A DNA stretch of 64,000 bases from Bilabrum cf. latius. Lineage: Eukaryota. This document shows, piece by piece, positions 20,268 to 48,406 of this stretch. Positions within the stretch are counted from its first letter, which is position 1. Each line of letters starts with the position of its first letter. The position numbers were made by a program, and so were the translations under genes. The notes under the pieces were generated by a model. It was given only the letters and a program-made list of their open reading frames with translations. It was not told the DNA's origin and made no database searches. The stretch spans positions 558,001-622,000 of the forward strand of contig OZ237752.1 in NCBI GenBank assembly GCA_965178125.1, given 5' to 3'.

Positions 20268-21719
20268 TCATCCCTTTACTTGACTTGACCTTTTAAATCT
20301 ACAAGCCTTTACTGAAACTTTCCTCGGTGTCCGTTCAGCTTCTCTTATTCCATTCTCGATATCTGTACCCATAGATTGCATACTTGCTCGTTTGCCCTAG
20401 ACCGGTATATCTTCTGAACTAGGGGCAACCACAGCAGAAGCTCTTCTATTCTCTTCCATTTTCCTAACTCGCTTCCTCGCCTTGCGTTTGCGTTGTCTTC
20501 GAAGCTCCTCCTTCTTCGGGTCGGGATAAAGGCGATCCCATGGCGCAGTAACGCAGACCCAGAAGCAAATGACACACATCAAGCAACCGAAAACAATAAG
20601 TGCAATCATCCACCATTTAAGCAACGGCTCGTTCTCGCTGAGTTGGCAGTAGCCTGCGTCACTAAGATGGCGCTGGATGATCTCAGGTGGATCTCCAACG
20701 CGAATCGCACAAAGAATCAGCCCAGCTATTTGAGCCTCAATAAGGATCCCGTCTTCCGTCCCTGCAGGGGCTCCTGCTGCATCTGAGCACAGCCGGCCAC
20801 CAACAAGCATCCGCTATGATGTCAGAATACCATCTGACAATGGCTCAAACCCCACCCCGATGCCGCCTGCATCTTCAGCTGGAACTGCAAGCTGCTGAAG
20901 GGTGGCGCACCGTTCGCCCTCCTGTGGCTGTCCAAAGCCCCATGGTACGTGCTGTCGGATACAGGGCCGGTTTTGGATCCAGGATGCGGGGTCCTGCCCC
21001 GCCAACAGATCAGCCGTGTTAGTGCCGTCTGGGACCGAGAGGGGTCGTAGATCCTGCTCCTGTCTAGCGCCCCCTGACCCGTCGTCCCACACCAGCACGG
21101 AGTCGTTGGCCCCTGCTTCCCGCACGTCCTCCATGCCGAGCCATGCCTGCCAGATTGAGGAGCCCTCCGTAGCGGCTGACAGGGCCAAATGCAGAGCGTG
21201 CCATTCGGGAGGGGAGTGCACCGAGGGAAGGGTAGCCCGAAGTGCAACTCCATCTACGCCGGGCGCGCCAGTTATTCTGGCACATACACTCTCTGCACCA
21301 TCTTTCCTGGTTGCAAAGCCTGCTTGCTGCAGGCACATGCGACCAAGGGCGCCTTCGTAGTACGTCCAGCTGCCCGAAAAAGGACTGGAAGCCTACTCGG
21401 CACAAAAATCATTCGAATTGAGCGCTATGCATTCCCGTCCGTTCTCAGATCGTGCGGTATTTGGCGGGCAGGTGCACCAAGACATCTGCGCCTGCTCCTG
21501 CCCGTCCAGCAAGATTGACTGTTGCAAACAGAGGGCCCCATCGGTGTCGTCGAAGTCACGGGAGCATATGCTTTCCTTATCTTCCGCGGGGCATACCCTA
21601 ACAATGCCTCGGGCTGCCTCGCTGCCGCCGGACGTCGGCGGAAACCCTGTCGCATCGGAACTACAGCACAGACACAGCAGCACCAGTGCCAACCAACATA
21701 GGTTCTGGTGCACAGCCAT
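20268..21719 (-). CDS. Type I membrane protein with Cys-rich/EGF-like and C-type lectin-like domains (483 aa)
   Basis: Signal peptide, CTCPPNTARSENGREC, and a CTLD-like pattern GSWTYY..MCL..AESVC..LPSVHS..AWLG..WDDGS..WGFGQPQEGERC. TM WWMIALIVFGCLMCVICFWVCV and a basic tail. Three TAG, ends TGA 20270-20268. Confidence 0.7.
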
Positions 21720-21908: not shown

Positions 21909-24900
21909 ATGAACAGCGACAAGCGTGACAATGATTCTCGATTACCCCTTTTACCGGATCTGCCTGCGCCTTATCCAGGTTCACGGGCACCGTTAAAGTA
22001 GAATGGTCGACCCAGACCGAGGGGCACCCAATCGCTTGAGGTGCAAAAGCTTGTAAAGCAAGCGGCTCTTGATACGTCTGCGAGGCCTCTGTACGATTCA
22101 AATGTGTGCAGTATTCTCGTGGAGCCCTGTGGTCTCGGAGCTTTCTCTGCAGGTATGATCTCGATTGGAGTGAGTAATGAGCAACCTTTTTCCAAGCCTT
22201 GGCGGCCAACTGGTTGATTATACCGTGATATCGGGAAGATGGGTTGACATGTTACTGTTTTCCCCGCAGGTTCTCATGATGGTGGGCATAATCCCCACGT
22301 CGACCTTAGAGCGCAACTCGCTGTGGACGGTGCACAGCTTGGGTATGATTGCCAGCATCCTGCTTGTGGTTGTTGGCGTGCTGTCGCCGTGGGTATGCCT
22401 CCAGTGCTGTCTTTGCTATCGCAAGCCTGCGGACTCTGTGTTCGAGCACAGCCGCTTCTACGGCTAGGCCGCCCTCCACCAGAACATGCAAGGGGCCACC
22501 ATCAGGCAGCACTACTCGGTGGCCGGCAAGGACAACGCCAGCCGCGGTACGGTCGTGCTGCTGCCGGGTGCAGGGGCGCCGCGCGGGACTATGCTCCCAC
22601 TCGCGCGGCGCCTGGCCCGCAACTTCCGCGTGATTGCACTGGACCTGCCCGGGCACGGCACCCTCTCTACAGTGCCCTACACCCTGCAGCACTGCAGCAC
22701 AGTGATCGCCAGGGTGCTCGCCAGAGAGGGTGTGTCCATGGGGCGAGGCCCGGGCTCGGTGCGGTCTCGGGTGGGCAGACCCAGGGACAGAAAAAGAGAC
22801 AGGGATAATGGTAGGACCAGGGGAGGTTCCGCTGCCTTGAGCCCCAGCAGAGATCGGAGCAGAGATCGGAGCAGAAGCAGGGGCTTCGGCCACGGTGCCG
22901 GCAGCACGCGGGGCTCCATGGCCGCATCTGAGAGGTCTGGGAAGAGAGACGGGTTTGTGAGCACCGGCGGCGGCAGACCGACCGCAGGGAGCGGGAGCGG
23001 GGCTGCTTCCCTCCGCAGCGGCGTGTCAGCGCTGTACTCTGACGGGAGGCAGAGAGGGGCCAGCAGCAGCCGACAGGGTGCAGGGACGAGGGGCGGTGCC
23101 TCTGCCTCGCACTCCCGACGGCTGGACCCAGGGCGCCGCACCGACGGCGACGAGGAGGAGGAGGACGAGGATCCGCCAGTGGTTCTCGTATCCCAGGGCG
23201 CGGCTCTTTTCGCTGCCGCTGTGTTCGCCCTGCGGCACCAGGACACTGTGGGCGGGGTTGTGTCCATGGGCCCCGTACCCGACTACACTGGCGGGCGGTG
23301 GTGCTCGTGCGGGCACTGGGAGCAGTATTTCCTACTGCGGTGGGTGGCATGGTGCGCGAACAGGGACATCCTGAGCGCGGTGGAGTCCTCGGATCTGCCC
23401 GCCGAGGAGAGGCAGCAGGCGGCTTCGAGGGACTTCCAGCTGCACACGGTCCCGGCCATGATCGACGAGCTGCAGGGGAGGCCGGTTTTGCAGGACCTGC
23501 GCGATTTCCGGGGCCCGCTGCTGTTCCTTGGGCCCAAGGACTGGGTCGCTCAAGTCCCCGATATGCTGCCCTACGGCGTGGTGCAGACCCGCAGGCTGAA
23601 AGGGGCCCGGCGGCAGAAGATCCCGCCACTCGAGGCTCGCAGACTGGAGGAGGCGGCGGTGGAGGTGAGCGCCTTTGCCGAGGACGTGTTTGCCCACGGT
23701 GCGCTGCTGGGTGCGCTGGCTGGCGGGAGGGGGGCACTACTTGGCCGGGACAGGAGACGGTCATCGGGGTACGGCGACACTGCCTCGCTGCGGAGCTACA
23801 GAAGGAGGCGACCAGCAGACGGCGATGGGGGTGGGGATGGTATGGCAGAGGGCAAGAACAGCAGTAGCCAGGCGGGGAGCGTTGCGGGCAATGGCGCGGG
23901 GTAGGGCCAGGGGCGGGGCTCGGGCACAGAGAGCGACATCGAGCTGGGGCGGCGGCGGGGGACTGGCACCAGCTAGTCTGCCAGCGCGGGTGCTGGTGCC
24001 GGGGCTCCTGTTGCTGCTGCTGCCGTGAGGGTGCCAGCGGACCGCAGGCGGCTTCCCCACGGAGCTGCCACCTCGAGCGATTTCGGCAGCGCCAGCGACC
24101 GCGGCTCCTTTGCAGCCGGTGCATCGCTCCCCATGGGCACCCCGCTCTTGGATGGGCTCCTGAGTCTGGCCTCCCCGCAGCACCAGAGCAGGGGTCCAGC
24201 AGGCGAAGGGGCCAGGGAGGGCAGGCCGGGCTCTCGTACGTATCGGGGGAACAGCGGGTCCGATCCACCGGTGGATTCAGCGCTGCAGGGGGGGTACAGG
24301 CGCGGGCGCGGCGAGGGCGCGAGCAGGGGCCGAGATAGGGGGATGGGCAGAGACGGGACCAGGCGGGGATCTGCGGGCGGACCTTCAAGCCAGTCGAGCC
24401 GTGGTGGGGCTAGGGCTGCAGCCACCGGCCGTGGGGATGCGGGTAGTGGTGGCAGGCTGGGTCGGGTCAGCCGACAGGACTCGGCCACTTTGGCGGTAGA
24501 CTCACTCTTCGGGTCAGCAGGTCTGTCCGAGCTCCAGCGAGAGGCAAGCGACGGTGATGGTGGGGGCGAAGGTGAGGGTGGGTCTGGTGGGGGTGGGGCT
24601 AGAGTAGGTGGACATCTGTCTGCGGGTGCTTCGATGGTGCCAGGGGGCAGCATGGCATCCTCTGCCGTTGAAGGCAGCAGCACCCACCCAAGGGCCCAAG
24701 CCCCATCGCAGGGCATTCCATCCCCCAGCGCTGCATCCAGTGGCAGGAGGGCTCGGGCGGGGATGGCAGCCAGGGCACACCAGGCCTCCATTAGAACCAA
24801 CTACAGGTACAGGCTGGTGAGTGGGGCCTCTGGGGAACTCGGGGTGAATGGTGGCGAGGATGACCGGAGTAGGACTCTGCAGAACGGCGGTGGGTCACCT

Positions 24901-25077
24901 GGGGGTGCGGGGGGGGGATAGCAAGGCGGTGCAACCGAGGAGGCCAGTGGAGGCACGGGGTCTCGCGTGGCGGTGCAGCCGCAGTGGTCCGTGCTTCGGG
25001 ACGGGAGGGGCCCTTCGTACGGGTCTTTTGACGGGGAGCAAGAGAGGGGCCGGGACTGGAGCTATGACCTGGAGTGA
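21909..25077 (+). CDS. Membrane-anchored alpha/beta-hydrolase-fold protein, probably catalytically degenerate; join(21909..22169,22270..25077)
   Basis: GTVVLLPGAG and FRVIALDLPGHG, N-terminal hydrophobic helices, and intron 22170-22269 (GTGAGT...CCCCGCAG). About 5 TAG, ends TGA. Confidence 0.75.
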
Positions 25078-25728: not shown

Positions 25729-26011
25729 GATTTGAGTTGGTGAAATGTTTGCGCAGTTGTCACCTGGAAAAATTAAAGAGCGCAACGACGCTTGCGCTGT
25801 CGTCATGGCTGTCGACGACAGCCTGTCGTGCTGATTTTCAAAATCTGAATTTAGTTTCTACACGCAACAACATTATTTGTGCTCGGTTCAGCGAATTTAA
25901 CAGCTTCAGCTGTGCGCTGGCTTCATCTAAACGTGTTGAGGACCCCGTTTGAACCACACGCGCATTCTAGTAAGTAATAGAATTTATTGATTCATGGTTT
26001 GCAGGCTTACC

Positions 26012-29000
26012 ATGAAGATGCACCCGTTGTGCAATAGCTTGGCCCGGCTTGCTTTGCTGTGGGTGTGGGTTTCAACAGCGATGGTTGCGGCGCAATCTGT
26101 ACCAGAACCTCCAGGTACAATATTCAACCAAGTTTTAGACATTAAAGACGCTTCTTCGTCGTCTTCTAGCCCCGACGAATTGCCTGGGGCAGCAGTTGTA
26201 CGGCTTGGAAATCTCGATTCCGTCGGATTCCACGACATTGCGTCTGGGATCCCCAATGGAATGGGATAGCTTGGCGTTAGGTCAGGATATGTGCACATAC
26301 ACAAGGTGTCGTCGTCCGATGTGCAGACTGTGGTGCTTTTCCCGCCGTCAGCGCTGTCCGAGGACGGCATGCAGTTCGGGGCCAGTTTAGCAAGTCTGGG
26401 TGATCCGGACATGGATGGAAGCCTTAACCTGGTCGTTGGCGCACCTGGATCTGCATACAACTTGCCATCTGGAAGTACCGGTGCCGGAATCGTTGTGTTC
26501 TGCGAAGTTGATGCCACCGGTTCAGTACTCTCCTCTGCTAGGATTAGCATCGGCGATGTTGCAACGGATCTCGCTGCAGCCGGCAAGGACAATTTCGGGG
26601 CTACAGTTGATACAATACCATGGTCGAGCAATGGGCCCGAGGAACGCACCATCGCGATCGGAGCGCCGGGGCAGAATGCTGGGACAGGAGCCATCTTCGT
26701 GGCACAGCTGGATGCATCCGGCACAGTACTCACTTCCACTACTTTAAGGGCTGCTTCTGCTTCTAACATCGATCTAGATGCCGCTACTGGCGTCGCATCA
26801 TTTTCTACCTCAAACTTTGGCTCAGCCGTGGCCGGCATGGGAGAGATCACTCGAGCCAGAGGCCGCACCTCCATCGCGGTCGGCATACCTGAGGCTCAGA
26901 ATGGAGTAGGCGCAGTGGCAATCATCCACCTGAGCAACAGCCTAGCGGCGGTATCAACCGATGTGATATACGATGGAGCCTCCGGCCTGGCTGCGGACAC
27001 GCTTCCAGATGCGGCTGCATTCGGCACTTCCCTTGCATCGGTGGGTGACGTGAGTGGGGACGGCTCGGAGGACCTCGCCGTGGGAGCTTCCGGTGCGTAT
27101 GAAGGATCCGGGGCCATCTGGATCGTGTTCCTTACAGGCGATTGGGATACTGCGGGCGATGATCGAGTCGTTGGCTGGCAGGAGCTGAGCCAGGTCAAGG
27201 GTGGAGGGGCAGGCCTCACGAACCTGCTGACGGCCGGTGCAGGGTTCGGCACCGCGCTGGCTGGCACAGGAGACTATGAGAACAACGGAAGGATGGGACT
27301 CCTGGTGGGTATGCCCGAGTACGAAGACAGCCATCTCACTAGGCTGTCGCTATGGACTGGCGCGCTCGATGCTCTTGGCTACGACAGCGTCGCATCCGAG
27401 TCGAGGGGTGACTAGTACGTGGCAGGGTAGCCGTATGCCCTTGGCCTCACGGGAGGCTACGGACATGCCATCGAGCTTATCGGTGACGTTGATGGAGACG
27501 GTAACACGGATGTTGCGGTGGGTGCCCCCGAGTACAAGGTTTTCGGCGTCGAGCGGGGCAGCGTGATCATCCTGCTCATGGACGGGCTGTCTGCGACCAG
27601 GGTCGCGGTGCACTCCCCCGCTAATTCTAACGGGGATCTTGCCTCAATGACAAATGCGTATCGCTTTGGATGTGGAATAGCCTCACTTGGTGATGTCAGT
27701 GCGCCTTCCGACGGCATTCCGGACATTGCAGTGAGTGCGTCACTGGAAGACGTGCAAGGCCTGCAAGACGCCGGGGCAGTGTACGTATTGGAGCTGGGCT
27801 CCGATGCAGACGTGCTTGAGTGGCACCCTATCCACGCCATTACAACCGGCTTTGCACAAGGATTCTTTGCAGCCAACGACCAGTTTGGGTACAGCCTGAC
27901 TTCCTGCGATGTGGACGGCGACGGCACCATGGAGCTCGTAGCCGGGGCTCCGAGAATCGCCGATGGCTCCAAGGGCAGCCTGATTGTAGTGTTCCTCTCT
28001 GGAGCAGATCAGGTCTAGTCGGCTTTGCGCATAGAAGATGGTAAGGCGGGCATGAGTGAAGATCTGGCTGCCGACGGTCGCTTCGGATGGGCAGTGGCCA
28101 CAGTCACGGAGTCTCCCGCCACCATCGCTGTGTCGGAACCATACAAGATCGTAAATGGAATACAGACAGGAAGCGTGCGACTGCTCGACTTGGATCAAGA
28201 TGGCAAAGTGACATCCTAGGTGGTGCTCGAACCGGGCACCTCCGGCATTCCGTCTTTCCTCCTTCACGAGATGGCTCTATTCGGGGACCAAGTTGCTGGC
28301 ATCGGCGACGTGTCCGGTGATGGGATCAGAGATCTGCTCGTGGGAGCCTCTGGACTGGATCAAGGTAGAGGCAAGTCCACTGGAGGGATCTTCCTGTTGG
28401 AGCTGACCTCGAGTAACACGGTAGGCTTCGTCAGGGTGCTGCATGCCATGAGCCCGAGCAACTTCCAGTCGTACAGCCCAACAGGTTCGGAGATCGGTAA
28501 AGGCATAGCAGGGCTTGGCGACTTGGATGGCGATGGCAACACTGACATGGCACTGGGTAGGATCAACAGCATCAATGGTGCTGGCAGCGCCGTGTTTCTG
28601 TCTGGTATCGAGTCTTACGCTGGAAGGCTGGCCAGCTCAACAGCAACAGTGAACGGCAAGTAGGGCATGTCTTCGTCCTTTTTGGGAGAGGGGAGTCAAC
28701 TCGGTAGCTGCGTGGCCACCTTAGGCGACCTAGATGGTGACGGTGACGAAGAATTGATGATAGGAGCGGCAGGCTACGCATCCTCCGCCAAGAGATACGG
28801 TGCGGTGGTAGTAATGCGCATGCCTGGGAACAGCCCTGGGACCCCCTAGTACACGTTGATCACGAATGCCAAAGGCGGGCTACAGACAACTCTGAGGGAG
28901 GACTCTCAGTTTGGCGCCGGTTGCGATGGAATAGGTGACCTGAACAACGACGGTGTTCCTGATGCAGTTGTGACTGCGACCAATATGTTGTCCCTGCGCG

Positions 29001-32000
29001 GGTCCATCTTCACGCTGTTCTTGAACAATGATGGTACCGTCAAAAATGAACTTGAGATACACGAAGGCAGTCACCCGGCCTTGAATGACTTGGGGGTATC
29101 CCAAGGCGAGCTTTTTGGGGCTTTCATTTCCTCCGGGCCATCGTGGAGCCACATTGGAGCAGTCGAGTACCTGGTCGGGGCTCCAGCGAAAAGCTAGCAG
29201 GACGGGGCGGTCATTTTGATTGATATTTCAAGCCAGGCCGGCCCCATTACCTCATTCACTTGGGAAGCATCGGATTTGAGCCTCACGTCGTTGATTGGCT
29301 CGGGGGCACGGCTGGGCTAGGGCGGGATGCTCGTTAAGGACTTGAACGGCAAGGGTGGGGACGATGCTGTGCTTGGGGCACCAAAGGCCACCCACTCTTC
29401 CGACGGCGAAATAGGAGCTATCATCGTTCTGTTTCGTAGCCAATCCGGCGGAGTTGATAGCTTGCAGCTCATTTGGCCTACATAGATCAATCCTCCATCC
29501 ACGACCACGTGGTCCAACTCCCTGTTTGGCTAGTACATGGCCCTACTATCTGATCTGGACCAGCTTGGCCAGGCTGAGATTGCCGTTGCTGCTCCTGGAC
29601 TTGAATCCATCTACATACTGTTCATGCAGCAGGATACTATGGGTATCAAGGTGGACAAGAGCACTTTGATCGAATCCAGCGACCAGGCCATAGATCTTGC
29701 GTCGGACAGCATCAGCTATTTCGGTGAGATGGCGTACATGAAGGACAGCAATAGTGATAGTCAACCCCAGCTTGCAGTTGGAGCGCCTAATGCGGATGAT
29801 GAGAGTGGCGTTACGACAGGCGCGCTGTTCGTACTCGACTTGGAGCCACGCGCTGCTCAGGCATCACCTCTCCCGAGCCCATCCCCTTCACCGTCGCCAG
29901 TCGCTGCTGGTGGCGTGGTCCGGTCAGCTGCGATCCTGGACGGTCAAAATGGGCTTCCCTCTGGAGTGAATGCGGGCTGGGCTAGCTTTGGAGTGGGTGT
30001 GGCGAGCCTTGGAGACCTCGATAATGACGGGATCTCTGATATAGCTGTTGGTGCGCCTGGTACAAAAATGGGTCTTATTAACAATTTGGGTACTGTGTTT
30101 GTACTGTATCTGCGACGGGATGGGACTGTGAAGAGTCACGTCGAGATCGGGGCGGGTCAGAACTCCGACGGGTTTGACTTCGGGCCTAGCGAACTGGGGG
30201 ACGGCTATTTTGGTTTGAATCTTGTGGCCATGAGGCAGCCAGCTGGAAATGAGGGGTAGTTGCTTCGGTTGATAGTCGGACAGCCATTCTTTGATAGTGT
30301 CTCGATCAATGCTGGCAGTATCTGGGTGCTGCGACTGTTGCCCAACGCGACGGTGGCGCATCACCAGCAGATCGGCGAGGGAAAGGGCGGCTTGCCATCC
30401 TCGCTGTTTGAGCCCGCGACTGCTTTTGGCGAGGGGCTAGCTGTATTGGGAGATGTGGATGGGGATACACTGAATGATCTTGCTGTTGGGATGCATCTCG
30501 ACGATATAGGTGACGGTGTGGCTGGACTTAACTCTGGCAGCGTGCATGTTTTGCTGATGGCTGCAAACGATACCGTAAAGACTCACACGCGAATCAGCCG
30601 CGCTGCCGGCGAGGGATTGTCGGGTCTTTCTACATCACATACGTTTTTGGGACAGGCTATTGCCGCCCTGTGGCCTGCTGAAACCAGTTCAGGCCCGGTA
30701 GATCTGGCCATCGCTCTGCCGAAGTCAGACATGATAGTACTGCTGCCGCTGAACAGCGCTGGGAAAGCTGGCGGCAACTGGACTGTCATAGCAGATGGAC
30801 GTGGAGGCGTGCCAGCAGGCACAATTGAGGTCGAATCCAGGTTTGGGTTCCGCATGGCTAGCATTGGGGACATCGATGGCGACGGGTAGGAGGACTTGGC
30901 TGTGGGCGCCAACTACGACAGCTCTGATGGATACCAGCGCGGGTCCTTGTTTCTACTCTTGTTGGACCGCCGGACTGCCACGCTCGAGCCAGTTGTCCGA
31001 ATCAGTCGACTCGGAAGCACCACTACCGGCTTAGGGACGGGAGTCGTGACGTCTAACATGAGGTTCGGGTCTGGTATCGCTAGCGTGGGTGACTTGGATG
31101 GAGACGGCACAACGGACCTGGTGGTCGGCGGTATGTCTGGGGGGGTGCAGTTCGCCGGTGCAGTGGTGGTCATGTTTATGGGGGGCGTGCCGCCGTCTGC
31201 CAGCCCAACCCCGAGCATCACACCATCCAGTTCTCCTAGCTAGACACCAAGCCCGAGCGCAACCCCAAGCCCCACTCCCTCTTCCGGTTGGGAGTACACC
31301 ATCCGGGGCCAGTATGGCCTGTACATGTCAAATGTGGTCGAGACTTCAGAAGACTCCGACGTCTTGTCCACTGTGCCAGGGGTGGCTTCAAGCACGATAA
31401 ACAACGACTTTGGAGACAGCATCACTGTGATCGGTGACATAGACTCGAATGGAGTGCCAGACTTGGCGGTCGGTGCCCCTACCCACGAAAACTCCGGCTA
31501 GATACACGTCCTGCTCATAGACACGGACGGGCTATGCAGCAAGGTTCATACAATAAGCAAGACTTCCGGCGATATGTAGGCAGACGATATAAAGAAACCT
31601 GGATTTGGCCGCTATCTTGCAGCGCCAGGCGACGTGGACCAAGATGGCATTCCTGATCTGTTCACCGGCACTGCGGGGACGTCCACCGGTAGTAACGGAC
31701 ACAAGGGGCACGGTTTTGTGATGCTTCTCGAAAGCGATGGCAGCGTCAAGGATTATCTTGTGGTAGATGCCGCTGCGCTTGGCATCTCTCGCTTCCTCGC
31801 ATATCTCGGCAATGGAGTTGCCACTCTGCGACAAGCGGGTCAAACCTCGCGCCGTCTGCAGCTCGCCAACACCGACCCCAGTCAAGGGGGGGGATGGAGT
31901 ACTCGTCTTGTTATTCGAGACTACCAGAATTCATTCACTGCTTTCACGGTGGACGAGCAGCTGGCTATCAGCGACGTCGTCGAGATTGGATACGACTCTG

Positions 32001-35000
32001 TTGGGCAGAGCACAGGCTCTGATAACCGTGATGGCTTTGGTGCGGAGATGGCAGGAGCAGATGATATCAATGGCGATGGTCACAACGATCTGTTTGTGCT
32101 ATCCCCATTTTTTGATTCCAACCGTGGGGCAATTTTCGTGCTGTTCTTCGGGTCGGACGGAACAGTAGGCGCCTTCAGTGAGATATCAACCGCTTCTGGG
32201 GCCTTGCAATATTTGTCTGGCTTGGAAGAAAACGACTTGGCGTATACTTCATTAGCGGCATCTGATGTTGATGGTGATGGCAGGCATGATATTGTACTGG
32301 GCGTGCGTCGACAGTCGGCAATCGGGCTGCTCTTCCTGGGCGCGGACGGCATGCCAGAACAGGGCAGGTTGATTGTAGCTCCAGACAGAGGATTCATCCA
32401 GCAGCAAACACTATTCGGCAGCGCAGTGGCTCCACTAGGCGACTTCAACGGGGACTCAATCCCAGACTTCGCGGTCACAGATGTCGATGAGAAGCAGCTA
32501 TGGATCGTGCTGAGCGAGCCATACGCTTTGCCGTCAGCTTCGCCTTCGCCCTCTTCGGCACCATACCCTGAACCTTCGCTTTTTCGGCCAAAGCTGGCCC
32601 TTGATCCAGTGACTGGGCGTATTGACTACTGCTTTCAAGAAATCACCCTTAAGATGGTGCCAGCCTCTACATTCGCCAGTAGGCTGCAACTTGGGACTGC
32701 AACTATGCGTCTGACAGCTAGTGTTCGATTGGACGGTTCACCGATAACGTTGCTAGAGAGGCGTAACCATCTCGAGATGGATCGTGCTTCAGCTACGTTC
32801 AGTAGCATGCTGTCAATGGGCTGGAATGGCACGAGAGACACAATGATGCAGTAGGTTTCGCTTGGCTCTGCGTGGCAGACTGACATCGTGCTCAAGCCTG
32901 CCCCAGCTTCACTTGTGGCTGATGGGACCAGTTAGGCCACATTGCGACAAGGCACCCAGGGCACGGTTGCGGCCGACTACTCTGATTTCCCATTGCCGAT
33001 GCCAAGGCCGGGTCAGATGGCCACGCTGACCATTGAAGCGCGGATGTACCTGCAACCGAGAGAGAACGACTCTTTGGTGGAGTCAGAGGCATCAATCCTG
33101 TCCATCAAGCTGGTGGGAGGACAGATACCGCGACTCGTGGAGAGTGGGGTGTCAAGAGGTGTTTTCGTTGATCAAGCTGTCAGAAATGTTGACTACGAGC
33201 TGGTTGGGGCACGAGGCTCTCGAGGCGTGGCGTGTAGCCAGCCTCTGGCAGAGGCGATTGAGTTCGATGGTGAAGACACCCGAGTGGTGCATCGGCCTGC
33301 CACTGCCCTGCAGTGGATCTTCTTGGGATCAAGTCCGGCTGCTGGCATATCCAGGCATGGTGCCACTTCGGGCCCCACTCCGGGGCATCCATGGTATCGG
33401 CAAACGCAGCATGCGGGAAGTGACTTCCTCATCGGGCTGAGAAAAGCTATGTCCACGTATTCTGCCTCCTTCAAACCATCGAATGTTGAAGATGTTCCTA
33501 AGTCACTCGAACAAGGCTCCTTTAGAGAGCAGGATACTGCCGACTATAGTGCATTTGACTTCAGTGCTATTGACGCAAGCCAGCTATCTATGGAAAACGT
33601 CCTGCATGACATCGACGGTGAGAAATGGTTCCGAGACCAGTCCGTACCCATGGATCCCAGCCAGGGCTGCAGCAGCAGCGACCCCCTCAACTCTCTAGCA
33701 TCACGTCTGTCGGCGAGCTTGCCGGCCGACACTCGGCAGGCTGGGATATTCGGCTGCGTGATCAGCCAGCCGGAGACTACTTCGGCTCTGACTAGCGCTG
33801 GCAACTGGAGCTTGCTGCTGCCTGCCAACTCACTCAGGGCAGGCGTGGCATACAACTTCCTCCTTCGTGCAGTTCCAGTTGTGCGACATGTGCGGCAAGT
33901 CAAAGTCGGCGGCACATACGAAGACCAGACAGAGCAAATCATGCCGGTGGCTCAAGCCGTGCAGGATGCATTGACAGCATGGGAGGCGAGGACCGTTGTA
34001 ATCAATGTGAATGTGCCAACCCTCAGCATGCCGATTCAGGGTGCTCTAGCCTCTGGGGGGCCAACGCCAGTGCCACATGACCAGCCCTTGCGGGTCGCAA
34101 TCAAGTACCCAGGCTCCGTGGATCCTGACTACACTCCGGCAGGTTTGGAATCGAGCATGCAAGCTGGTAAACGAGCAAATGATCTGGGCTTTGGGGAGGA
34201 CTTGAAGCTTTCACAAACGTTCCAGTGGACATGTCAAGTACGAACTGCATTAGGTGGGCCTCCGGAGCCGCCTGTAGAATCTGACTGCAGCCGACTCATG
34301 CCGGGAGCTGGTAGCCTTGGACCATACCGCAGCACTATAATTTCAGGGTAGGCAATCCAAGAGCTCACCGGATATGTCCTCACAGTGCAAGTGGCAGGGA
34401 CTAGTAGGGTCACCTCATCCGATGAGCAGGTGCACTCGGAACGGTCGGGAACTAGGGCTATCCAGTACCTCGTGAGGCCGCCTGACCTGCCTGTTGTCGA
34501 GGCCAACGTGACGCAGTCGTCACTCAATCGACAACGGCCGGATGGTTCTATCGCAGTGAGTCCGCAGCGCAGGCTGGTGCTTGAGCTCGTCTTGGACGGG
34601 GTGCGAGCGTCGCTCATGTACCAGAGTGAGCTAGCCACTACTATGGGTGGGCTCGGGTTAGAATGGGCCCAGGTGTCAGGACAAGCCATCACTGGCCTTC
34701 GTTCTATCAATGACGTGGAGGCAAACCCAGGCATTGGCTTCTCAACGCCCTCTGGTGATGTTCTGGTCTCCCCGGTTGGTAGCAGGCAGCTGGCCATTCG
34801 ACAAGGTGCTCTCGCTGCAGGGCAATCATACCAGTTCGCAGCAGTCGTGTTCTTGCGCGATACGCCTAGAGTGCAGCAAAAAGGCACCGTTCGTGTCTTC
34901 GGCAACATGCCACCCGTCAATGGATCGGTTGCAGCCCGGACTATATCGGGGCAAGGAAATATCAAGGCGGTGCTAAGCCTGACGAATATCTCCACCAGCG

Positions 35001-38000
35001 GATGGGAGGAATCAGCTCCTGACAACCCCTACCAGTACGCCTTCTACGTTGACATCAATGGTCAACTGCCAGTAGGGCCGCTCAGCCAAATTGCTGCGAA
35101 CCCTGACGACGTGATCGCCAACTACTCATGCTCACCGCTGCGTGGTTACGCGCCCAGCCCATTTGCATCTGTGTACCTTCCTGAGGGAAGTTCCCCAACT
35201 GAAGTCACCCCCATGTCGTTAGCAGTTCTTGTGCGGGATAGTGCTGGATCCATCGGTGGAGTGGCAAGTTTAATATAGGTACACCCGGCCCTTGACTCCG
35301 GTACGACGGATGAATAGGCCAGCCAACTGCTCAATGAGCAGCTGCAGCGCCTTGAGTCGTCAACGGCCAGCCCGGAGGAAATCTTGGGAGGACTGGCAGG
35401 CCTGGGACAGATAACAGGTCGTGTCAAAGCAAATAATACCACAAGAGTCTCGCTTGGAGACGAAATTCTAGGCCAAGTGGAGCGGGTTTCCACACTTGCT
35501 GCACCAAGCGATACAGTACTCGGATTCGTGGCTGCTTCAGCCAGCGGAGTGCTTGGTGGTAACGGCACAGCGACCGATGCTCAGATTGGTAGCACTCTAA
35601 GTACTGTTGGAAGCTTGCTGGCCAGGCGATCAATGCAGGATTTAAATGAGACGGAGCCGGTGAGTTCGCAGACAACTACTAACGTGCTGGAGGTGCTGGG
35701 CACGGCGGGCTTGTAGCAGCAGAGAATGGGCAACTCTTCCAAAATGGCCCCTGTCTCTTCATCAATCTCGGAAAGCGCAGGTCTACTCGGACGGGCCATG
35801 CTGCTTGGTGCAGTGCCGGGCGAACGGCCGATTCGGGCGCGAAGCAATGCCGGTGGCCTCGATCTGACGGCCGCTCGCATGCCAGATGTGTCGCAGAAAG
35901 CCGGGGCATGCCAATCTGGTGGGGCAGTATTCCTTGGTGCAGTGTCGGGTGAGCTTGCCTCTGAAAATGATACTGCCGCCGCCATGGCGTTGGAAGCAGC
36001 ACGGGCACAGATCGAAGGCGATGGTACTCACATCTAGACAATGAACAGATCAACTGACGAGCCAGTGTCGAGTGGTGGTCTGGTCCTCGCCACCACAGAC
36101 TGCGGGGCTGTAGCTGCGATGGGAGCGATTGACGCCAGCTTCATGAGCTTTGGCAACCTGGTTCCATACCCGAACAATAACGACAGCATTCCGATCTCTT
36201 CATCCATCGGCGGCGGTAACCGTTCAGTTGTTTCCGCTTCACTTGGAACCCCGGTCGCGGTGCGCGTCGCCTCTGCTGCTGGAGATGAGGCGGGAGGAAG
36301 CGGGGCTTTGATGCTGAATGTGGAGCTTCCAGTCGTGCTTAGTGCAGACAGCGCAATGGGTACCGGCTCCATCGCTTTGGAGGCAGACGGATAGCAAGTG
36401 GGGTCTGCCGATACCGACAGCAGCCTGCTGGTTGGCAGCTGCTTGACGTGGGATCCCATTGACCTGAAGTGGACTGAGGACGGTTGCCGTGCAGCTGGGA
36501 TCAGCGCTGCAGGTGGGCTTATATGCGAATGTGAAGGGTCCAATGACTTTGCCTCCCGGCTTGAGCTGCTTGCCAAGCGCAATCTCCAGATACTCACCCA
36601 GGGGCTTTCGGGGCTGACCTTGGACGACGTGCTTGAGAACCCGCTTCTCTTCGTTGTGGTTGGGGCCATGCTTCTGTTCAGCATTGTGTGCCTACCGTAT
36701 GTGCATTGCCTCGATCTCAAAGACGAGACCGTGTTCGCTGGTCGGCTTGCCCGGGACCCGGACGTGCAGCTGGCCATCGGTCTGGAGGCGATCGAGTTGG
36801 TCGGAGTACGACTTGGCAAAGTGATGGACCAGCTTGAAAACGAACCCAGGACGGGTGGAACAGTGGGTTGCACTTTGACTGCCGAGGAGGTTGACCGCGC
36901 CACTGATGCTGCCGCTGAATCGCTGCACGTGCTGCGGCAGGGAATTCTCGACTGCACCAGTTTCAGTAGGAAGGATTTCGATCGGAGCGCAGAAAGCACG
37001 ATGGGCTTCAAGAACGATGCTTTTGCTAGGCTAGGTCTCATGCTCAAGCAATAGAGACAGGAAGACTCGAGCTTCTCTGGTGCTGGATCCGCTAACAGTA
37101 CTGACTGGACAGCAACACGACTCGGTGACTTGCCAGGCCGAACTCGCTCAGAGCTTGGTGTGGAAGGCCGGTCGTGGCTAGCCACGTTCGGGTAGCACCT
37201 TGTCAGTGAACGCGGTAGTCCTGCAAGTGAAAATCCGCACATTGGCAAAATACGGAACAGAGCAGTCGAGTCGAAGCCACTCCGGCAGGGCCGGCAAGAT
37301 GCCGCAAGTCATATGTCGCGATGTCCGTGTTGTTCACTGGGTCCGTCTACAGCCTTCAAAGCCGTTGCTAGGGCATTCAACAAATCATTTTAGTCAATAT
37401 CGAGGGATCGACCGGCCAGTACGAAGCGGGATCGAGGCAAGATTGGCAAAACAGGCACAAAGAGATCAACAAGCGATGCCTCAAGGGCGCGTTAGATTGC
37501 TAGAGATGAGGCACTTGAACAACAGCTGGATACTGAACTCCGCGAATTGTCCAGCGATAGCAGCTGCGCAAGACTGTGGCACATGCGTCGAGAGATATGC
37601 CAGCTGTGGTGGGTCCGGACAGTGTATGAGCATTTGTGGTGTAGCGTCTGGTCGCGGTTCAAGTACGATTTGGCTCGATTTGTCAGGTTGGGGCAGCTGA
37701 CAGGCTCCATGGCAATAAGCATGCTAGTGACAGCTGTGTTCTTCTCTCTCACAGGCGTGAACAATGGGCCAACCTAGCCGCCCGACATGCCAAGTGGAGC
37801 TGCACCCCTAGATGGTACCGACACCGGCGGGGCTTTTCCACAGCCTGCCAATGCTACGTTCGTGGACACTACCGAGCCGATGACGCAGGTTCAATCCATC
37901 GGTATATCAGTGTTGGCATCGGTGCTTTAGATCCCATTCACGGTTTTGCTGACAATGCTCATGAGCTGTGCTAGCGAAGCGAGGTACAAGAGCAAGTTCT

Positions 38001-41000
38001 TCACCATGTGGAGAGAGCAGGAGATCAGAACGGTTGCAGAGGAGCATCTCGATAAGCACGTCTCCATCCAACTCCGCAGAATCAAGGAGCAGGTGGCATC
38101 CCGCGCGCAGTGGATCGAGACCTCAGACCCCTCCAAGGTGCAAGGTGCGCACCTGGACGACATCAGGCAGGTTGCTGACCTCGCAGGAGATGAACTCTCC
38201 ACGCAACTGGCGCTCGATGTGGCTAGCAATGCCCGCGGTACTGCCGGCTGGTAGAGAGAGAGAACAAGTCCGGTGCGAACAGGCCATGTGGCAATGTACG
38301 ACGGTCGTGTGGGACAAGAGCAGGTGGCTGCTAGCCCCAGCAATGAGTCGTGCGCGCCAGACTTGCAATCCTTGCAGCTAACGAGAAGCCAGCAGTACCT
38401 TGCGTTCACGCAGGCCGTTCGAGAACTTGGTGATACCATGTCAGCAGGTGCGCGGTGCGAGTTCACGACCTGCGGCACGCGTTGCAGTTGCTGCTGCTGC
38501 TGGCCCTGCTGCCCCCGGTGGGGCCCGGAGCAACTGATTCTCGACGAGGCGTCAGACAGGGCTCTCGACAAGACTAAGCCGGGCACAGCTCCAAGTGAGA
38601 AAGAGACTATCGCTAAGCGACTTCACAAGCTGCGGGTCACCGCACTTAGACGAGGGGCGATGCTGGGGTGGCCCAGGCTGCTTCCAATTCTCCGAAGAAC
38701 GCTGGGAAAGGTTCTCTTACCAGAGACTCACACACGTCAGGACACTGGAGGCGCGGGTGGCTCCAGTTAGGGCTCACAACGACGCAGAGCAGAAGCTGGA
38801 GGAGCCACCGGTGCGTCCACGGGTAGAACTCAAATCAAGTTGACAGATGGCGAGATACAGCAGATGCTCATGTGGGATCTGGGCAATATCAACTCATCTG
38901 ACCCCTACTTTAGGACAAGAGCCCTGAAAGCCGCGCTGCTTGTGGTTGATTCCATCCCGAAGGTGATACCGGCGGCCGAGCTGGGCTGGTTTGACCCTCC
39001 GAAGTGGCTGCATCGGTGCTGTTGCGGCTGTTTGCCAGCGCTGTTGGGACGTTCCAGGGTAGAGAAATCGCTCTTCCTGCTTCATGCATTCGCGCTGGAG
39101 GGCCGCCCAGTCGGGTGCTGCGTGTCTCGGCCTGCCGAAAGCGATCAAGCCATCCAAGGCGTGTCGCCCGAAATTGCTGCCGAGGTGCTCAAGCATGAAT
39201 CCGTGCTGGAGCAATCCATTGATCAGGAGATTGATAGGCTCATACAGAAGATCAAAGCTATTCCCAAGGTAAGCAGCGGCCTTGCTACGGACGAGGCATC
39301 GGGAATCTAGTAGCGTAGTCACAACGATAAATCGGTATGTTGCCATTGCGCCAATATGTGTTGCTTAGGCAGCAGTGCCACGAAGCCAAACGCAAAGCCG
39401 CGATCAGGTCGAGGGACAGAGAGACGGCCACAGCCCGTGCGCGAGTCCTGTCACATCATGGAACACACGCACTGCGGGGCCCTCGACCCATTGCTCTGCA
39501 GGTGCCGCGTGGTAAGGAGCCACGTGGTGGGCAACACGGACCTCATGGCAGTGAGCGCCGCAATAGAAATGGATCGATGGGCTGGCAGTCGCGGCTCTAG
39601 TGCAGGAGCTGCAGCAGTGGGCGATGCTGCGGTGCCAGTCTCCGTGGGGTCCAAGCCTAGATCATTCGATAGCAGCGAAGAAGTATCAAGCGCCGGGACC
39701 CACTCTACGCAAGCTCTGCCGGCATCTGCTCCGCCAACAGACATGTCCGATCACACCAGTACTGACGGTGACTCTGCCACAGCCATATCGCTGATTCCAT
39801 CAGAGATGGGTGGGGAGAAGTCCAGCAGCGAGTAGGCTAGCAGCAGCATCAGCAGAAGCCTCGAGCTTGACTTCTACAAGGCAGTGCAGGCCAGTCAGAT
39901 CGGCACAGCGATGAAGGCAGCACATGGCTCCAAGGAGATCAACAGCGATGATTTCTTTCGCATGGCACTACAAGCTGTAGATGGTGTGAACACATCGCGA
40001 TTTTCTGCTCAGCACGGAGTCGAGCCCTCACATAAGACGCACGTGAACGACCTCGGTGTGGCATACTGGCTGGCAGAGCACCGCGTGCTGGAAGCCCCCG
40101 AGCTGGAAGCAAAGGTCAGGCTCACCATCGCAGAGATGCAAGGCAAGGACCGGTGGTCGTGCCTGTATGGAGTCGCGTCCTTGGCATTTCTCACCGTCCT
40201 CATCTCGTTTGTGCTGTACTTTGTCTTGTCTTTCGGACTCTTCTACACGCCCGATGTCACCAACACGTTCATGGTGGTGTTCTGGCAGGCACAGTTTACG
40301 ACGATTTTCCTGACACAGCCTGTCATGGTGATGATCGTACTACTGTGGACCGTCGGGTTCAGCCCCGAGGCCAGAGAAACGTGCAGCTGGGTCCCGGGAC
40401 TGCTGGCTGCGGGGGCTGGCGTATCCGTAGCTGGCGTTGGCACACTGACAGGCCGCCTCCAGAACATGGTCTTGCTATAGGCTACCGGTGCCACTGCGGG
40501 GCTGGACAGTGCCAGCAGCTTGATGCTCTTCGGGCAGTCCGCGGTCCTCTCCGAGATGCTCGTGGCGAGGTCCAACAGAAGGGGCCAAGGCAGCTCGGCA
40601 GGCCTGTCTTTCGGCTCGGGTTCCCCTCAGGACTCGATCGCAAAGGTGTACGCACGCGTGCGGCACTCGTACGCATCCCGCATAGCTCGTGGTGCCATCC
40701 GGCGCATGCTCGAGGCTAGCGGGTACAGCTGCGAATGGACGAGACGACAGCGTGAAGCCGAGGCATGGCGGACGCGCCTGGCTGTCCTTGCCCGCCTGCA
40801 GGCCGAGCCTTGGCAGCTGGAGAGGCTCGAGCGCAAGGTCAAGCTGCAGGCCAAGGTGATCCTTGGCGATGGAGTGCAGCCCCCAGCGGAACTGTAGCCA
40901 GAGCAGCTTGAGCTTGAAGGCCCAGGGGTTTCGTCTGTTTCGGCACCCAGATCGAAGCGGGATAGCCTCGCCAAGTCCGTGGAGTTGGGCGGCAGTTTCG

Positions 41001-41248
41001 AGAGCTCAGGAGCTGATGTCGCGGCCGGGGAGGACAAGGGGGGTCACTTGCAAGCTGAGTGCGTCAGCACGGCTGCTGCCGCCGATGTTGACGACGCGAA
41101 GGCCTCCTTGGCCACTCCCGACCAGCTGGACACGCTCTAGATGCTACTGCGAAAGAACGCCGTGGCGTTGCACGTTGCGCTACTGGTCACTAGGGGTCTT
41201 GTGCGTCCTGGCGCACGGCTTCCTATGGCCAAGCTCCACTGGAAATGA
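26012..41248 (+). CDS. Giant intronless cell-surface receptor (~5,078 aa): signal peptide, many FG-GAP repeats, REJ-like region, GPS motif, polycystin-1-like TM region
   Basis: About 24 listed ORFs fall in one frame joined by ~38 TAG, with no TAA or TGA until 41246-41248. Has >20 DxDxDG-type FG-GAP loops, S/P/T linkers, NMPPVNGSV, CLTWDPIDLKWTEDGC...CECEGSNDFAS, and HLWCSVWSRFKYDLARFVRL followed by TM helices. Confidence 0.88.
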
Positions 41249-41364: not shown

Positions 41365-43504
41365 TCACTGCCCTAACCCTCGCACGACGGCATGGGACGC
41401 ACCTGACCCTTCCAGCACCTCGAGCCGCTGCAGCCGCACGAGAAGCTCACGAAGCCTCCCCGCTTTAGCTGAATCACCTGCACTGATGGCATTCGCCCCT
41501 CTCGTCCCGCTGCCAGTCGACCTAACAACGCGGCCCCTGGCATGCGCACCCGCCCCATGCACGCCGCCCCAGGCAGCGTCCTTGCTCACTCCCTCGACTG
41601 CCTAAGCCAGCAACACAGAAGCACAGCGACCGCTTTCATCCCGAGCGCCCACGCACAAGTCCGCCACAAACTCCTCCTCCTCTTCATCCCCCTCGCCTCC
41701 CTCCCCTGCCTCGATCAGCGCCTCGATGGCCTCCTCGTGGCCACCACTGCACGCCCACATGAGCGCTGTCCAGCCTGTCGTGGGAAATGACGCGCTGGAT
41801 GCAGATGAAGCAGCACTTCTGGCATCGGCGCCGCTGTCCTACCCTTTTGCAAGTTCAGACTATACACCAGCTCCCAGTGCTTTTTCTTCGCTGCCCTTCT
41901 TCGGTGCAGCGGGTCCACCCGAGGCGGCAGCCACGTCCCACCCAGCAGGGTACTGCCTGGCAGAGGGATCTGCTCCGTACAGGAGGAGGTCTCGGACCAC
42001 GTCGCCGTGCCCGCGGGCAGCCGCGTACATGAGCGGGGTAAACCCCGACGAACGTTCGGCGAGGTACATGTCGGCCCTCAGCTTTGTGACGAGCAGCCTA
42101 ACAATGGCCCTCTGTCCCTCGATGCAGGCGGTCATGATGGGCGTTGTGCCCCGGATGTTGGGCGTGTCCACAGGGAGCATGCAGCCGGGGGTGGTGCACA
42201 GCAGTTGAATGCAGCCCGCCCTGCCAGCCTGGCACGCAAACGTGAGGGCAGACCTGAGGCCGTCGGGCTGCGAGGGACGGAGAGAGAGGGTGCATGGGAT
42301 ATGAGCGGCAGCATAGGGGGTGTGCCGGGACGGAGGAGAGCGCACATCGAGTAACGAATAGAGAGAACTGGACTGCTGCAAATGCCAAGCATAGTGCCAC
42401 CTAACGCCAGCTAGAGCTTGACAATAAAGCAATTGCGTACCCTCTCGCGAACGGCAACAGACCAGCGGCAGCAACAGAACCAAAGGGACTCAGAGTCAGA
42501 AATCTCACCGTGAGCGCGGCTGGGTCCGCGCCTGCCTCCAGAAGCACGGATACGACTGAATCCGATCCAAAAGTGCACGCTACCATTAGAGGGGTGCGGC
42601 CGTCGGGCAGCCGAGCGTGCGGGTCCTCCCCTGCCGCGATGAGCTCGGCTGCTGCCCGGCCTGCATCGTGCCTGGCTGCCTCGAAGATAACGGGGCCTGC
42701 GCGGATGCCTGATTTGACCTTGCGCTAGCGCTTGCTGCGGCCTTGATTCTAGGTTGGATCCTCAAAGGTGGGCGTTGTGCCGGGTATGCTGCCGGAAGCT
42801 CCTCCTGGTGCAGCTCCTTTCCCACTGCGATCAGGTGCAGGCCCTGCCCGCGGCAGCTCACCCGCCAACGCGCCGGCTCGGATGAGCTCGCCAACAACAG
42901 CAGGGAAATCATTCCGGATCGCTAGTCGCAGTGCGGACAACCCGTCGTTCCTTTTTGTGAGTACATCTGCGCCCTTGGCGACCAATACCCGAAGGCAATC
43001 CAAGTGCCCACTTTCCGCAGCAAACATTGCTGGAGTGTTGCCGTCGCTTGTCTGGCAGTTTGGTGAGCATCCCGCATCAATTAGCAACAGAGACGAGCCG
43101 GCATGGCCAGAGCCTGCCGCAAGATGCAAGGCGGTCTCTCGTGTTTGAGCAAGTTGCATCCGTGCGCTGGCACCACTCTCCAGCAACAAACGCACCACAG
43201 CATCGTGGCCACCTTGGGCTGCCTAGTGCAAAGCAGAGGTTTGAGAATGTAGGGTTTTCTCGTTTGCAAAAACCTCATCCGTGTGGCTCTACAACCTAGC
43301 TAGAACTTGCTTTACCTTCTCCACGTTGCCAATGGACGCCCATTTACACAACTCAACAAGGCGTTTAGACTATTCTGTAGCAGATGACTATTGCGCTGAC
43401 CTTTCGTGTGAACTGGTGCCCCACACAACCCGATATGCTACAAAAAGCGCTCCGGTTGCACCAAGAGCGGCAGCCAGCGGCCACACGAACTACGATCTAC
43501 TCAT
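41365..43504 (-). CDS. Ankyrin-repeat protein with N-terminal signal anchor; join(42509..43504,41365..42267), 632 aa
   Basis: Repeats SALH[TAG]AAQGGHDAVVRLLL, TALHLAAGSGH, TPAMFAAESGHLDCL, TPLMYAAARGHGDVV and TALMWACSGGH. Intron 42268-42508 (GTGAGA...TCGCAG). About 10 TAG, ends TGA. Confidence 0.9.
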
Positions 43505-48200: not shown

Positions 48201-48406
48201 ACTTTGAGACTGAGAGCGTGGTGGAGGAGGACATGCTTGAGGCAGGCGCGGGAGTGGGGGAGGGAGCAGAGGCAGGCGAACGTGGAGGAGCAGGTCGCGG
48301 GGATGGTCGAGCCGCGGCAGCTCCCCGGCCGCAGTACACCGCTGCCGACCTCGCGATGGGGTTCCTGTCTCATGACGAAATAAATCGGCTCGAGCGTATG
48401 CATTGA
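45271..48406 (+). CDS. Long coiled-coil protein; join(45271..45523,45618..48406), ~1,013 aa
   Basis: E/Q/A/R/L-rich heptads in one frame joined by TAG, including tandem TAG TAG at 47363-47368. Intron 45524-45617 (GTACGT...TTGCAG, phase 1). Ends TGA. Confidence 0.75.

Follow-up and report, generated by a model that had tools for sequence, protein, structure and literature searches.

In nuclear genetic codes, UAA and UAG almost always shift meaning as a pair. In the ciliate, hexamitin and dasycladalean code (table 6), both are read as glutamine, UGA is the only stop codon and UAA is a common glutamine codon. The exceptions come from Iotanema, from a rhizarian and from some phyllopharyngean ciliates; to our knowledge they are the sole natural tests of how a release factor or a tRNA tells UAA from UAG. 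The nuclear code of Iotanema spirale (Fornicata) reads UAG as glutamine, with UAA and UGA as stops, and 104 termini are UAA versus 15 UGA (PMC5304391). UAG also means glutamine in the phyllopharyngean ciliates Hartmannula sinica and Trochilia petrani (NCBI table 15), where it makes up 18.5-31.8% of glutamine codons and is present in about 80% of genes (PMC11687900). Across five reassigned ciliate genomes UAA is the preferred stop, at shares of 86.9-98.3% of all genes, and its role as a stop is, in the authors' argument, fixed (PMC11687900). UAG is leucine (table 16) in the rhizarian exLh and in TARA phyllopharyngean genomes, organisms for which a tRNA with a CUA anticodon has been proposed or found and which terminate mainly at UAA, with 56 UAA versus 15 UGA in exLh (PMC5304391, PMC11687900).

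The window analysed here is a stretch of 64,000 nucleotides that is about 86% coding, intron-poor and 56-66% GC. Its features, including 21 long open frames with a total of 18,413 codons, are collected in Table 1. Among named proteins, those of stramenopiles, mostly oomycetes, match best. Oomycetes also lead among the best 120 of 2,234 matches to ELAC2, with Plasmodiophora, plants, animals and fungi trailing by a few orders of E-value; on these matches the lineage would be described no more finely than stramenopile-leaning. ARAGORN found no tRNA genes in the 64,000-nt window, and Rfam, at gathering thresholds, no RNAs. The window is very probably eukaryotic nuclear DNA in which UAG is a regular sense codon, most likely for glutamine, UGA is the working terminator and UAA has taken on no new meaning.

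As in Iotanema, UAG alone would be reassigned, to glutamine, with UAA staying non-sense, and UAG is a minority glutamine codon in both (about 8% in Iotanema, 14% in the window). Unlike Iotanema, which terminates mainly at UAA, the window has no TAA and 20 TGA termini; it is also GC-rich, and its lineage appears to be a different one, the named matches being stramenopiles. With UAA as the main terminator of Iotanema, the window is more than a mere repeat of that case. The UAG-only reassignment to glutamine and its wide internal use are shared with Hartmannula and Trochilia, from which the window differs in that no UAA stops are seen, in its GC-rich and very long genes, and in introns of 100-250 nt. 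With table 6 it has in common UAG as glutamine and UGA as the sole terminator observed (20 of 20), but UAA is absent from its codons. Like exLh and the TARA genomes, the window has UAG and UAA uncoupled; unlike them, it has a TAG in a conserved column that is Gln in 118 and Leu in none of 120 homologues, and the summed log-odds are -11.6 for Leu versus -0.6 for Gln.

Table 1. Positions of the open frames, introns and individual TAG codons in the window.
Feature	Position	Strand	In-frame TAG	End and remarks
Frame, 3' end off the window	2..1414	-	2	Terminator beyond the window
Pectinacetylesterase-family gene	1562..2689	+	1	TGA
Last homeobox exon	2831..4711	-	4	TGA; from first in-frame ATG
Three GT..AG introns	about 4685-4782, 4839-5092, 5286-5431 (each +/-1)	-		Within 4685..5431
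Homeobox TAG codon	4795..4797	-		In 56-57-nt exon of spliced TALE-type homeobox gene
LRR protein frame	5773..7659	+	4	TGA
RRP7 homologue	7776..8684	-	3	TGA; last residue at Pfam profile position 120/120
Frame without known family	8849..10480	+	5	TGA, overlapping ATG of next frame
Frame without known family	10477..12258	+	1	TGA
YdcZ-type DMT membrane protein	12376..13818	+	4	TGA
Signal-peptide-peptidase-like protein, PA domain	13919..16435	+	6	TGA
Peptidase TAG codon, residue 445	15251..15253	+		Gln column in 118/120 homologues
Carbonyl-reductase-like SDR	16665..17615	-	2	TGA; C-terminal Trp
ELAC2-type RNase Z	17637..20255	+	8	TGA; 0 TAA; GC3 0.43, lowest-GC gene
Secreted or membrane protein frame	20268..21719	-	3	TGA, 12 nt from RNase Z stop
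Hydrolase-like N-terminus with low-complexity tail	22177..25077	+	4	TGA
Big open frame	25994..41248	+	38	TGA; 5,084 sense codons; 0 TAA
Ankyrin-repeat gene, two frames	41365..43504	-	9 in 5' frame	Candidate ends 41855 and 41365, both TGA
Coiled-coil protein frame	45632..48406	+	11	TGA
Frame without known family	48768..51206	-	1	TGA
Frame without known family	51652..56049	-	6	TGA
CTNNBL1 homologue	56343..58664	+	7	TGA
LRR protein frame	59556..61445	+	4	TGA
Myb-domain protein frame	61479..63533	+	9	TGA

The 21 long frames contain 132 in-frame TAG codons and not a single TAA or TGA; the counts come from open frames rather than curated exon models, so that a handful of these TAG could be non-coding. 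Off frame, the counts are 148 and 168 for TAG, 51 and 83 for TAA and 306 and 406 for TGA. The in-frame TAG density of 0.72% is near the off-frame one, and every one of the 21 frames has at least one TAG, genes with Pfam support included. The first-pass annotation had claimed that TAG is sense and that TAA is nearly absent, which agrees with 132 TAG versus no TAA in 18,413 codons. It had also drawn attention to a gene of about 5,000 codons with some 38 TAG, no TAA and common CAA. The codon content stands, with 66 CAA and 123 CAG in frame and TAA occurring 19 and 32 times off frame within the same span; the start is corrected, from 26012 to 25994. The predicted protein has a signal peptide and at least 12 FG-GAP repeats in its N-terminal half, while no Pfam family was found in its C-terminal half. 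A search for near relatives of this 5,084-residue protein among shorter proteins gave 63 matches, all of them distant FG-GAP proteins with 24-37% identity.

Alignment columns make glutamine the most likely meaning of TAG, the same amino acid that had been proposed from the sequence at the outset. In the signal-peptide-peptidase-like protein, residue 445 falls in the one strongly conserved Gln column tested; the homologues have no Glu, Lys, Leu or Tyr there, and a relative (P0002) that is 97% identical to the peptidase (383 of 394 residues) has Gln at this site. When log-odds are summed for the nine TAG columns whose occupancy is 70% or more (in the peptidase, ELAC2 and Myb proteins), Gln comes first, 5.6 nats ahead of the next residues, Val and Glu, both at -6.2. 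In pairwise alignments with PDB entries, the TAG codons of the SDR lie opposite K, K, R and E, E, E, and those of CTNNBL1 opposite D and R, which are polar residues other than Gln. A metagenome scan with the peptidase gave one locus, L001, at 26% identity. In a library search with the Myb protein, the 150 best of 18,637 matches at E<=0.001 were Myb-domain proteins, and none of these 150 was a fragment from the 97% relative; their use was confined to one TAG column, in which K, E, R and Q occur.

Another meaning for UAG as a sense codon, namely Glu, Lys, Leu or Tyr in the manner of other reassignments, is unlikely. It would find some room in the Myb column, which is rich in Lys, Glu and Arg (K 97, E 79, R 61, Q 58 of 443), in the hydrophobic ELAC2 columns 255 and 538, and in one TAG at an ankyrin position that we take to be usually Leu. 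However, none of the four residues occurs at the peptidase column, P0002 has Gln there, and Gln leads the summed log-odds. Three further alignable TAG columns belong to regions that are divergent or align poorly: peptidase 235, where Pro is found in 100 of 120 homologues, ELAC2 255 (I/V/L) and ELAC2 538 (F/Y/L). They fit no polar residue and give Gln no support.

The absence of TAA from the frames can be set against the use of other A-ending codons. Over the 21 frames there are 592 CAG, 192 CAA and 132 TAG, and the A-ending shares are 0.245 for CAR, 0.30 for GAR, 0.29 for AAR and 0.14 for TTR. For A-ending shares between 0.14 and 0.30, the probability that 132 TAR codons include no TAA ranges from 2e-9 down to 4e-21, so TAA as a normally used synonym of TAG is ruled out. 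The argument of the first-pass annotation, that a ciliate-type code would lead one to expect many TAA, is borne out by the same probability. RNase Z, for which it had noted lower GC with eight TAG and no TAA, gave the same counts; its A-ending codons are well used, with CAA 10 versus CAG 15, GAA 28 versus GAG 12 and AAA 22 versus AAG 13.

A table 6 code, in which UAA would also be Gln but very rare in a GC-rich genome, has two points in its favour: the genome is GC-rich, and UGA is the sole terminator seen, as in table 6 organisms. We consider it decidedly unlikely, because TAA is missing altogether even though CAA, GAA and AAA account for 24-30% of their pairs, even TTA, the least used of the sense codons, is found 39 times, and the AT-leaning RNase Z gene is as empty of TAA as the others. 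A tRNA with a UUA anticodon would, moreover, read both codons, and total avoidance of one of them would have no reason. Reading TAA as sense extends just three frames, all at the 5' end, by 90, 46 and 30 codons (starts at 5503 versus 5773, 21857 versus 21719 and 45542 versus 45632), and the additions, which contain two, two and one TAA, are promoter or leader sequence. A table 6 frame at 44670-45536 on the minus strand, with three in-frame TAA, was rejected as a gene, its translation looking like off-frame noise rich in Arg and Gly.

Termination was assessed on a frame listing that accepted both TAA and TGA as terminators. All 20 complete frames end in TGA, as had been stated before, and the 21st runs off the window. 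The share of TAA among TAA plus TGA is 0.31-0.33 in the non-coding DNA of the window and 0.16 off frame; with these neutral shares, no TAA in 20 termini has a probability of 3e-4 to 0.03, and the sample is small enough that, were 10% of all genes to end in TAA, 0 of 20 would still be seen with P=0.12. In the RRP7 homologue the protein ends exactly where the Pfam profile does, and the final Trp of the SDR lines up with the point at which carbonyl reductases of solved structure end; TGA is therefore the true terminator of both. Coding support was found in none of the small TAA-ended ORFs in the gaps between genes (4849-5142, 25087-25368, 41276-41605, 44904-45251 and 45271-45549). In no frame does termination have to be assigned to TAG or TAA.

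Along the frames, the TAG counts per decile are 16, 14, 14, 10, 9, 11, 20, 14, 13 and 11, a uniform distribution (KS p=0.90), and TAG positions are like those of CAR codons (p=0.61). This uniformity disfavours a second role of TAG as terminator near gene ends. A context-dependent code of the kind known from Condylostoma and Blastocrithidia, in which UAG (or UAA) is sense or stop according to its distance from the mRNA end, is accordingly very improbable: TAG is not depleted toward frame ends, TGA is never in frame, and every frame does without a TAG or TAA terminator. Such codes rely on short 3' ends, and in their favour contigs from two studies end 8-13 nt past one TGA, which hints weakly that 3' ends here are very short.

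Spliced genes provide a view of TAG in transcripts. The helix-3 tryptophan follows the homeobox TAG by four residues, which places this TAG at homeodomain position 44, presumably Gln in the consensus. All eight PDB matches to the preceding homeobox exon are TALE homeodomains, although weak (E 0.03-1), and Pfam gave no match at E<=0.01 to the homeobox exon alone. The three introns of this gene are present in the genomic contig of run X1 and missing from contigs of runs X5, X6 and X7; since these skip the introns, they are transcript-derived. Transcript-type contigs cover at least 29 of the 41 in-frame TAG between 1400 and 21399 with no differences, among the 32 pieces listed of 221. Over these 20 kb two differences are listed, both away from TAG. 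Agreement of spliced contigs with the DNA at the covered TAG disfavours editing or intron removal. The ankyrin-repeat gene is split over two frames, which implies an intron. Some frames have parts that look non-coding and may be intron or leader, for instance the tail of 41855-43504, some 85 codons at the start of 61479-63533 and some 60 codons at the end of 59556-61445.

An artefact is almost certainly not the explanation, whether through pseudogenes, misassembly, editing of UAG in the RNA or a code 15 contig of bacterial or phage origin; the bare presence of in-frame TAG and nothing further would speak for it. A 15-kb frame that is open save for its 38 TAG cannot be a product of chance, independent runs from three studies have identical sequence, and a prokaryotic or phage origin is excluded by spliceosomal GT..AG introns and by the eukaryote-only genes RRP7, CTNNBL1, ELAC2 and Myb.

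Reading UAG alone as glutamine would involve a tRNA-Gln whose CUA anticodon, a single-base change from that of the CUG isoacceptor, pairs with UAG and not with UAA, together with an eRF1 that has lost recognition of UAG. UAA may then be a seldom-used stop, or a codon without an efficient reader. The earlier reading, in which UAA is a stop of rare use or else a codon hardly used at all, was hedged in the same way and matches the evidence; with no TAA in 20 termini, the window is compatible with either. The second is possible though less likely than not: UAA would be an unassigned codon, served by neither a tRNA nor a release factor and purged from frames and gene ends, with a release factor specific for UGA, as in table 6 organisms, and tRNA-Gln(CUA) alone. 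Codon-capture models predict a state with an unassigned codon, and an unassigned UAA is unreported in the nuclear-code papers compared here.

The window would represent a further case of UAG-only reassignment, in a seemingly different, GC-rich lineage. The main texts of openly accessible articles that were searched contain no report of UAG alone being reassigned in stramenopiles or in any other GC-rich protist, and a published description may exist. The terminator habit is opposite to that of the described UAG-only cases, with UGA at 20 of 20 termini versus UAA at 87-98% elsewhere. As TAG is present in all 21 frames, gene prediction with the standard code would fragment most proteins. Should UAA turn out to have no use, not even as an occasional stop, the organism would stand as a living intermediate on the way from the standard code to one in which both UAR codons are Gln, and the loss by eRF1 of recognition of UAG but not of UAA would become a directly testable question.

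With standard stop codons the window is split into short pieces, while reading through TAG gives 21 long frames. Comparison of in-frame with off-frame counts (table) shows that TAG is tolerated in these frames without counter-selection, and that TAA is kept out no less strictly than TGA. Even TTA, the rarest sense codon, occurs 39 times in the 21 frames, and the A-ending codon makes up 0.245 of CAR, 0.30 of GAR, 0.29 of AAR and 0.14 of TTR codons (R being A or G); at those shares, the probability of finding no TAA among 132 TAR codons is 2e-9 to 4e-21. The frame at 25994-41248 (+), encoding a giant FG-GAP protein, has 5,084 codons, including 38 TAG, no TAA, 123 CAG and 66 CAA, and is terminated by TGA. 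The sharpest single-gene case is the ELAC2-type RNase Z (17637-20255, plus strand), where GC3 is 0.43, GAA outnumbers GAG (28 vs 12) and AAA outnumbers AAG (22 vs 13), and which contains eight TAG and no TAA. The first-pass annotation had read TAG as sense and TAA as nearly absent, pointing to about 38 and zero in some 5,000 codons of the former gene and to 8 and zero in the lower-GC RNase Z gene, and the counts agree on each point. TAG codons are evenly spread over the length of the frames (KS p=0.90) and placed like CAR codons (p=0.61), and the position test on the 21 frames gave no sign of TAG doubling as a terminator.

Codon counts in and out of frame, and stretches skipped by contigs of three sequencing runs (minus strand)
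Feature	Position	In frame	Off frame (two frames)	Basis
TAG		132	148 / 168	21 frames, 18,413 codons
TAA		0	51 / 83	21 frames, 18,413 codons
TGA		0	306 / 406	21 frames, 18,413 codons
Skipped stretch	about 4685-4782			GT..AG ends, X5/X6/X7 contigs
Skipped stretch	about 4839-5092			GT..AG ends, X5/X6/X7 contigs
Skipped stretch	about 5286-5431			GT..AG ends, X5/X6/X7 contigs

The frames were listed with TAA permitted as terminator, so that any sense TAA would split a gene in two. When TAA is read as sense (table 6, with UAA and UAG as Gln and UGA as stop), just three frames grow, through 5' extensions of 90, 46 and 30 codons that contain 2, 2 and 1 TAA. They fall in divergent-promoter or leader DNA, one of them ahead of a signal peptide beginning at the annotated ATG. 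A table-6 frame at 44670-45536 (-), with three TAA, was rejected, its translation being Arg/Gly noise of off-frame appearance. With extensions this small and that frame being noise, treating TAA as non-sense hides no gene.

Four public sequencing runs were compared with the window over 1400-21399, with 32 of 221 pieces listed. The contig of run X1 is colinear genomic DNA. Those of X5, X6 and X7, from two further studies, are identical to the window except that the three stretches with GT..AG ends are omitted, and are therefore transcript-derived. Their listed pieces, without a single difference, span 29 of the region's 41 in-frame TAG codons; among all pieces listed there are two differences in 20 kb, at 13315 and 13317, neither at a TAG codon. 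Retention of the TAG codons without differences in transcript-type pieces argues against loss of UAG by editing or splicing. In both studies, transcript-type contigs have nearly the same ends (1528/1525 and 2702/2697) flanking the gene at 1562-2689, the latter pair 8-13 nt past its TGA. One contig, ending at 7767, stops 9 nt past the TGA of RRP7 (7776-8684, minus strand), and contigs of both studies end at 20322, within the frame 20268-21719; a gap of 12 nt separates the stops at 20255 and 20268. These contig ends hint at very short UTRs and at convergent transcripts that overlap, though only weakly because contigs cannot show RNA ends.

TGA terminates all 20 complete frames, as the first-pass annotation had stated, and the 21st continues past the window edge. 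Two of the 20 ends match those of homologues: the last residue of RRP7 is profile position 120 of 120, and the last Trp of the carbonyl-reductase-like SDR (16665-17615, minus strand) is aligned to the Trp region at the C-terminus of carbonyl reductases with solved structures. Judged from local base composition, TAA would under neutrality make up 0.31-0.33 (non-coding DNA) or 0.16 (off-frame positions) of TAA plus TGA, at which 0/20 TAA termini has a probability of 3e-4 to 0.03. Given this range, and since 0/20 would still have P=0.12 if 10% of termini were truly TAA, the deficit is suggestive, short of proof. No small TAA-terminated ORF with coding support was found in the gaps.

The amino acid encoded by UAG is very probably Gln, as proposed earlier. 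The most informative site is residue 445 (TAG 15251-15253) of a signal-peptide-peptidase-like PA-domain protein (13919-16435, plus strand), where 118 of 120 homologues have Q, as does P0002, a near relative 97% identical to it (383/394 residues). P0002 has a standard Gln codon there, and its DNA could date the TAG/CAG turnover. One ELAC2 TAG lies opposite a Q of human ELAC2 in a pairwise alignment. Joining the exons of a spliced gene gives a TALE-type homeodomain, in which TAG 4795-4797 lies four residues ahead of the helix-3 tryptophan, at what we take to be homeodomain position 44, a conserved Gln; the preceding exon has eight PDB matches, each a PKNOX, MEIS or TGIF homeodomain and each with a weak score (E 0.03-1). 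Nine TAG columns, each with at least 70% occupancy, were scored, and the summed log-odds place Q first (-0.6), ahead of V and E (-6.2), K (-10.8) and L (-11.6). Counter to Gln, no polar residue fits three of the columns (Pro in 100/120; I/V/L; F/Y/L), and the column of the TAG in the Myb gene (61479-63533, plus strand) is mixed (K 97, E 79, R 61 and Q 58 of 443), so the assignment leans mainly on the residue-445 column and P0002.

UAG-only reassignment is described, in excerpts of PMC5304391, for Iotanema spirale (UAG=Gln) and the rhizarian exLh (UAG=Leu), with UAA and UGA termini numbering 104 vs 15 and 56 vs 15, respectively. Excerpts of PMC11687900 describe it for five phyllopharyngean ciliate genomes, three with UAG=Leu and two with UAG=Gln (NCBI table 15), UAA terminating 86.9-98.3% of genes. 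In these excerpts UAA is thus the main terminator, whereas in the window TGA ends 20/20 genes. In its sense change the window agrees with table 15 and in its terminator habit with table 6; its full pattern matches neither. Searches of the full-text literature, with subscription journals outside coverage, found no such code reported for stramenopiles or other GC-rich protists, and a prior published account is possible.

GC content is 56-66% across the 64-kb window, falling to 48-53% at about 18-22 kb, and long open frames on both strands take up about 86% of it. The lower-GC island (18000-22000; 0.48-0.53 vs about 0.6 elsewhere) holds the RNase Z gene and its convergent neighbour. The eukaryotic products include RRP7, CTNNBL1, the RNase Z and the PA-domain peptidase, alongside Myb, ankyrin and LRR proteins, a pectinacetylesterase-family enzyme and the SDR. 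The best named matches are oomycetes and diatoms without exception for the peptidase, and oomycetes for ELAC2, followed closely by Plasmodiophora, plants, animals and fungi; by these matches the lineage appears stramenopile-leaning. The product of 12376-13818 (+), a YdcZ-type DMT membrane protein whose long tail is acidic/Gly-rich, belongs to a family that is presumably mostly bacterial, and the gene may for that reason be an old transfer. Identical sequence from X1 and X5-X7 is filed under three coded organism labels in three studies, and X1 has a depth of about 12 on the window's contigs and 109 on another contig; mixed samples may have contained the organism as a minor component, an associate or contaminant.

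Three GT..AG introns, about 98, 254 and 146 nt long and visible as joints in the contigs of three runs, interrupt the homeobox gene (2831-5539, minus strand). The homeodomain it encodes is divided among three exons, and its upstream exons contain two more in-frame TAG, outside the 132. An ankyrin-repeat gene at 41365-43504 (-) spans two open frames that overlap, and Pfam Ank repeats in both imply a putative intron around 42200-42500; the 5' frame has a tail of non-coding appearance. The 2.1-kb gap at 43504-45632 has several protein-like minus-strand ORF pieces (43839-44456, 44600-44920), all ending in TGA and with no Pfam match found, and is probably a multi-exon gene. At 10477-10480 the four bases ATGA hold both the TGA that ends frame 8849-10480 and the ATG that starts frame 10477-12258, representing either two tightly packed genes or a single gene whose intron or frame change is unseen. 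The giant FG-GAP protein has a signal peptide and at least 12 FG-GAP repeats in its N-terminal half; its C-terminal 2,584 residues (33494-41245, plus strand) match no Pfam family and contain hydrophobic stretches and Cys-rich patches. A putative role as a receptor is plausible.

In the simplest machinery, UAG would be read by a tRNA-Gln(CUA) unable to pair with UAA, and ignored by eRF1. That UAA is unassigned, eRF1 having become UGA-only, seems rather unlikely; it would account for the lack of UAA within reading frames as well as at gene ends. The split between UAG and UAA is real, and to the extent that the window can show it, the uncoupled reading stands. The window is an additional case of the rare class of UAG-only nuclear codes, with an unusual terminator preference.
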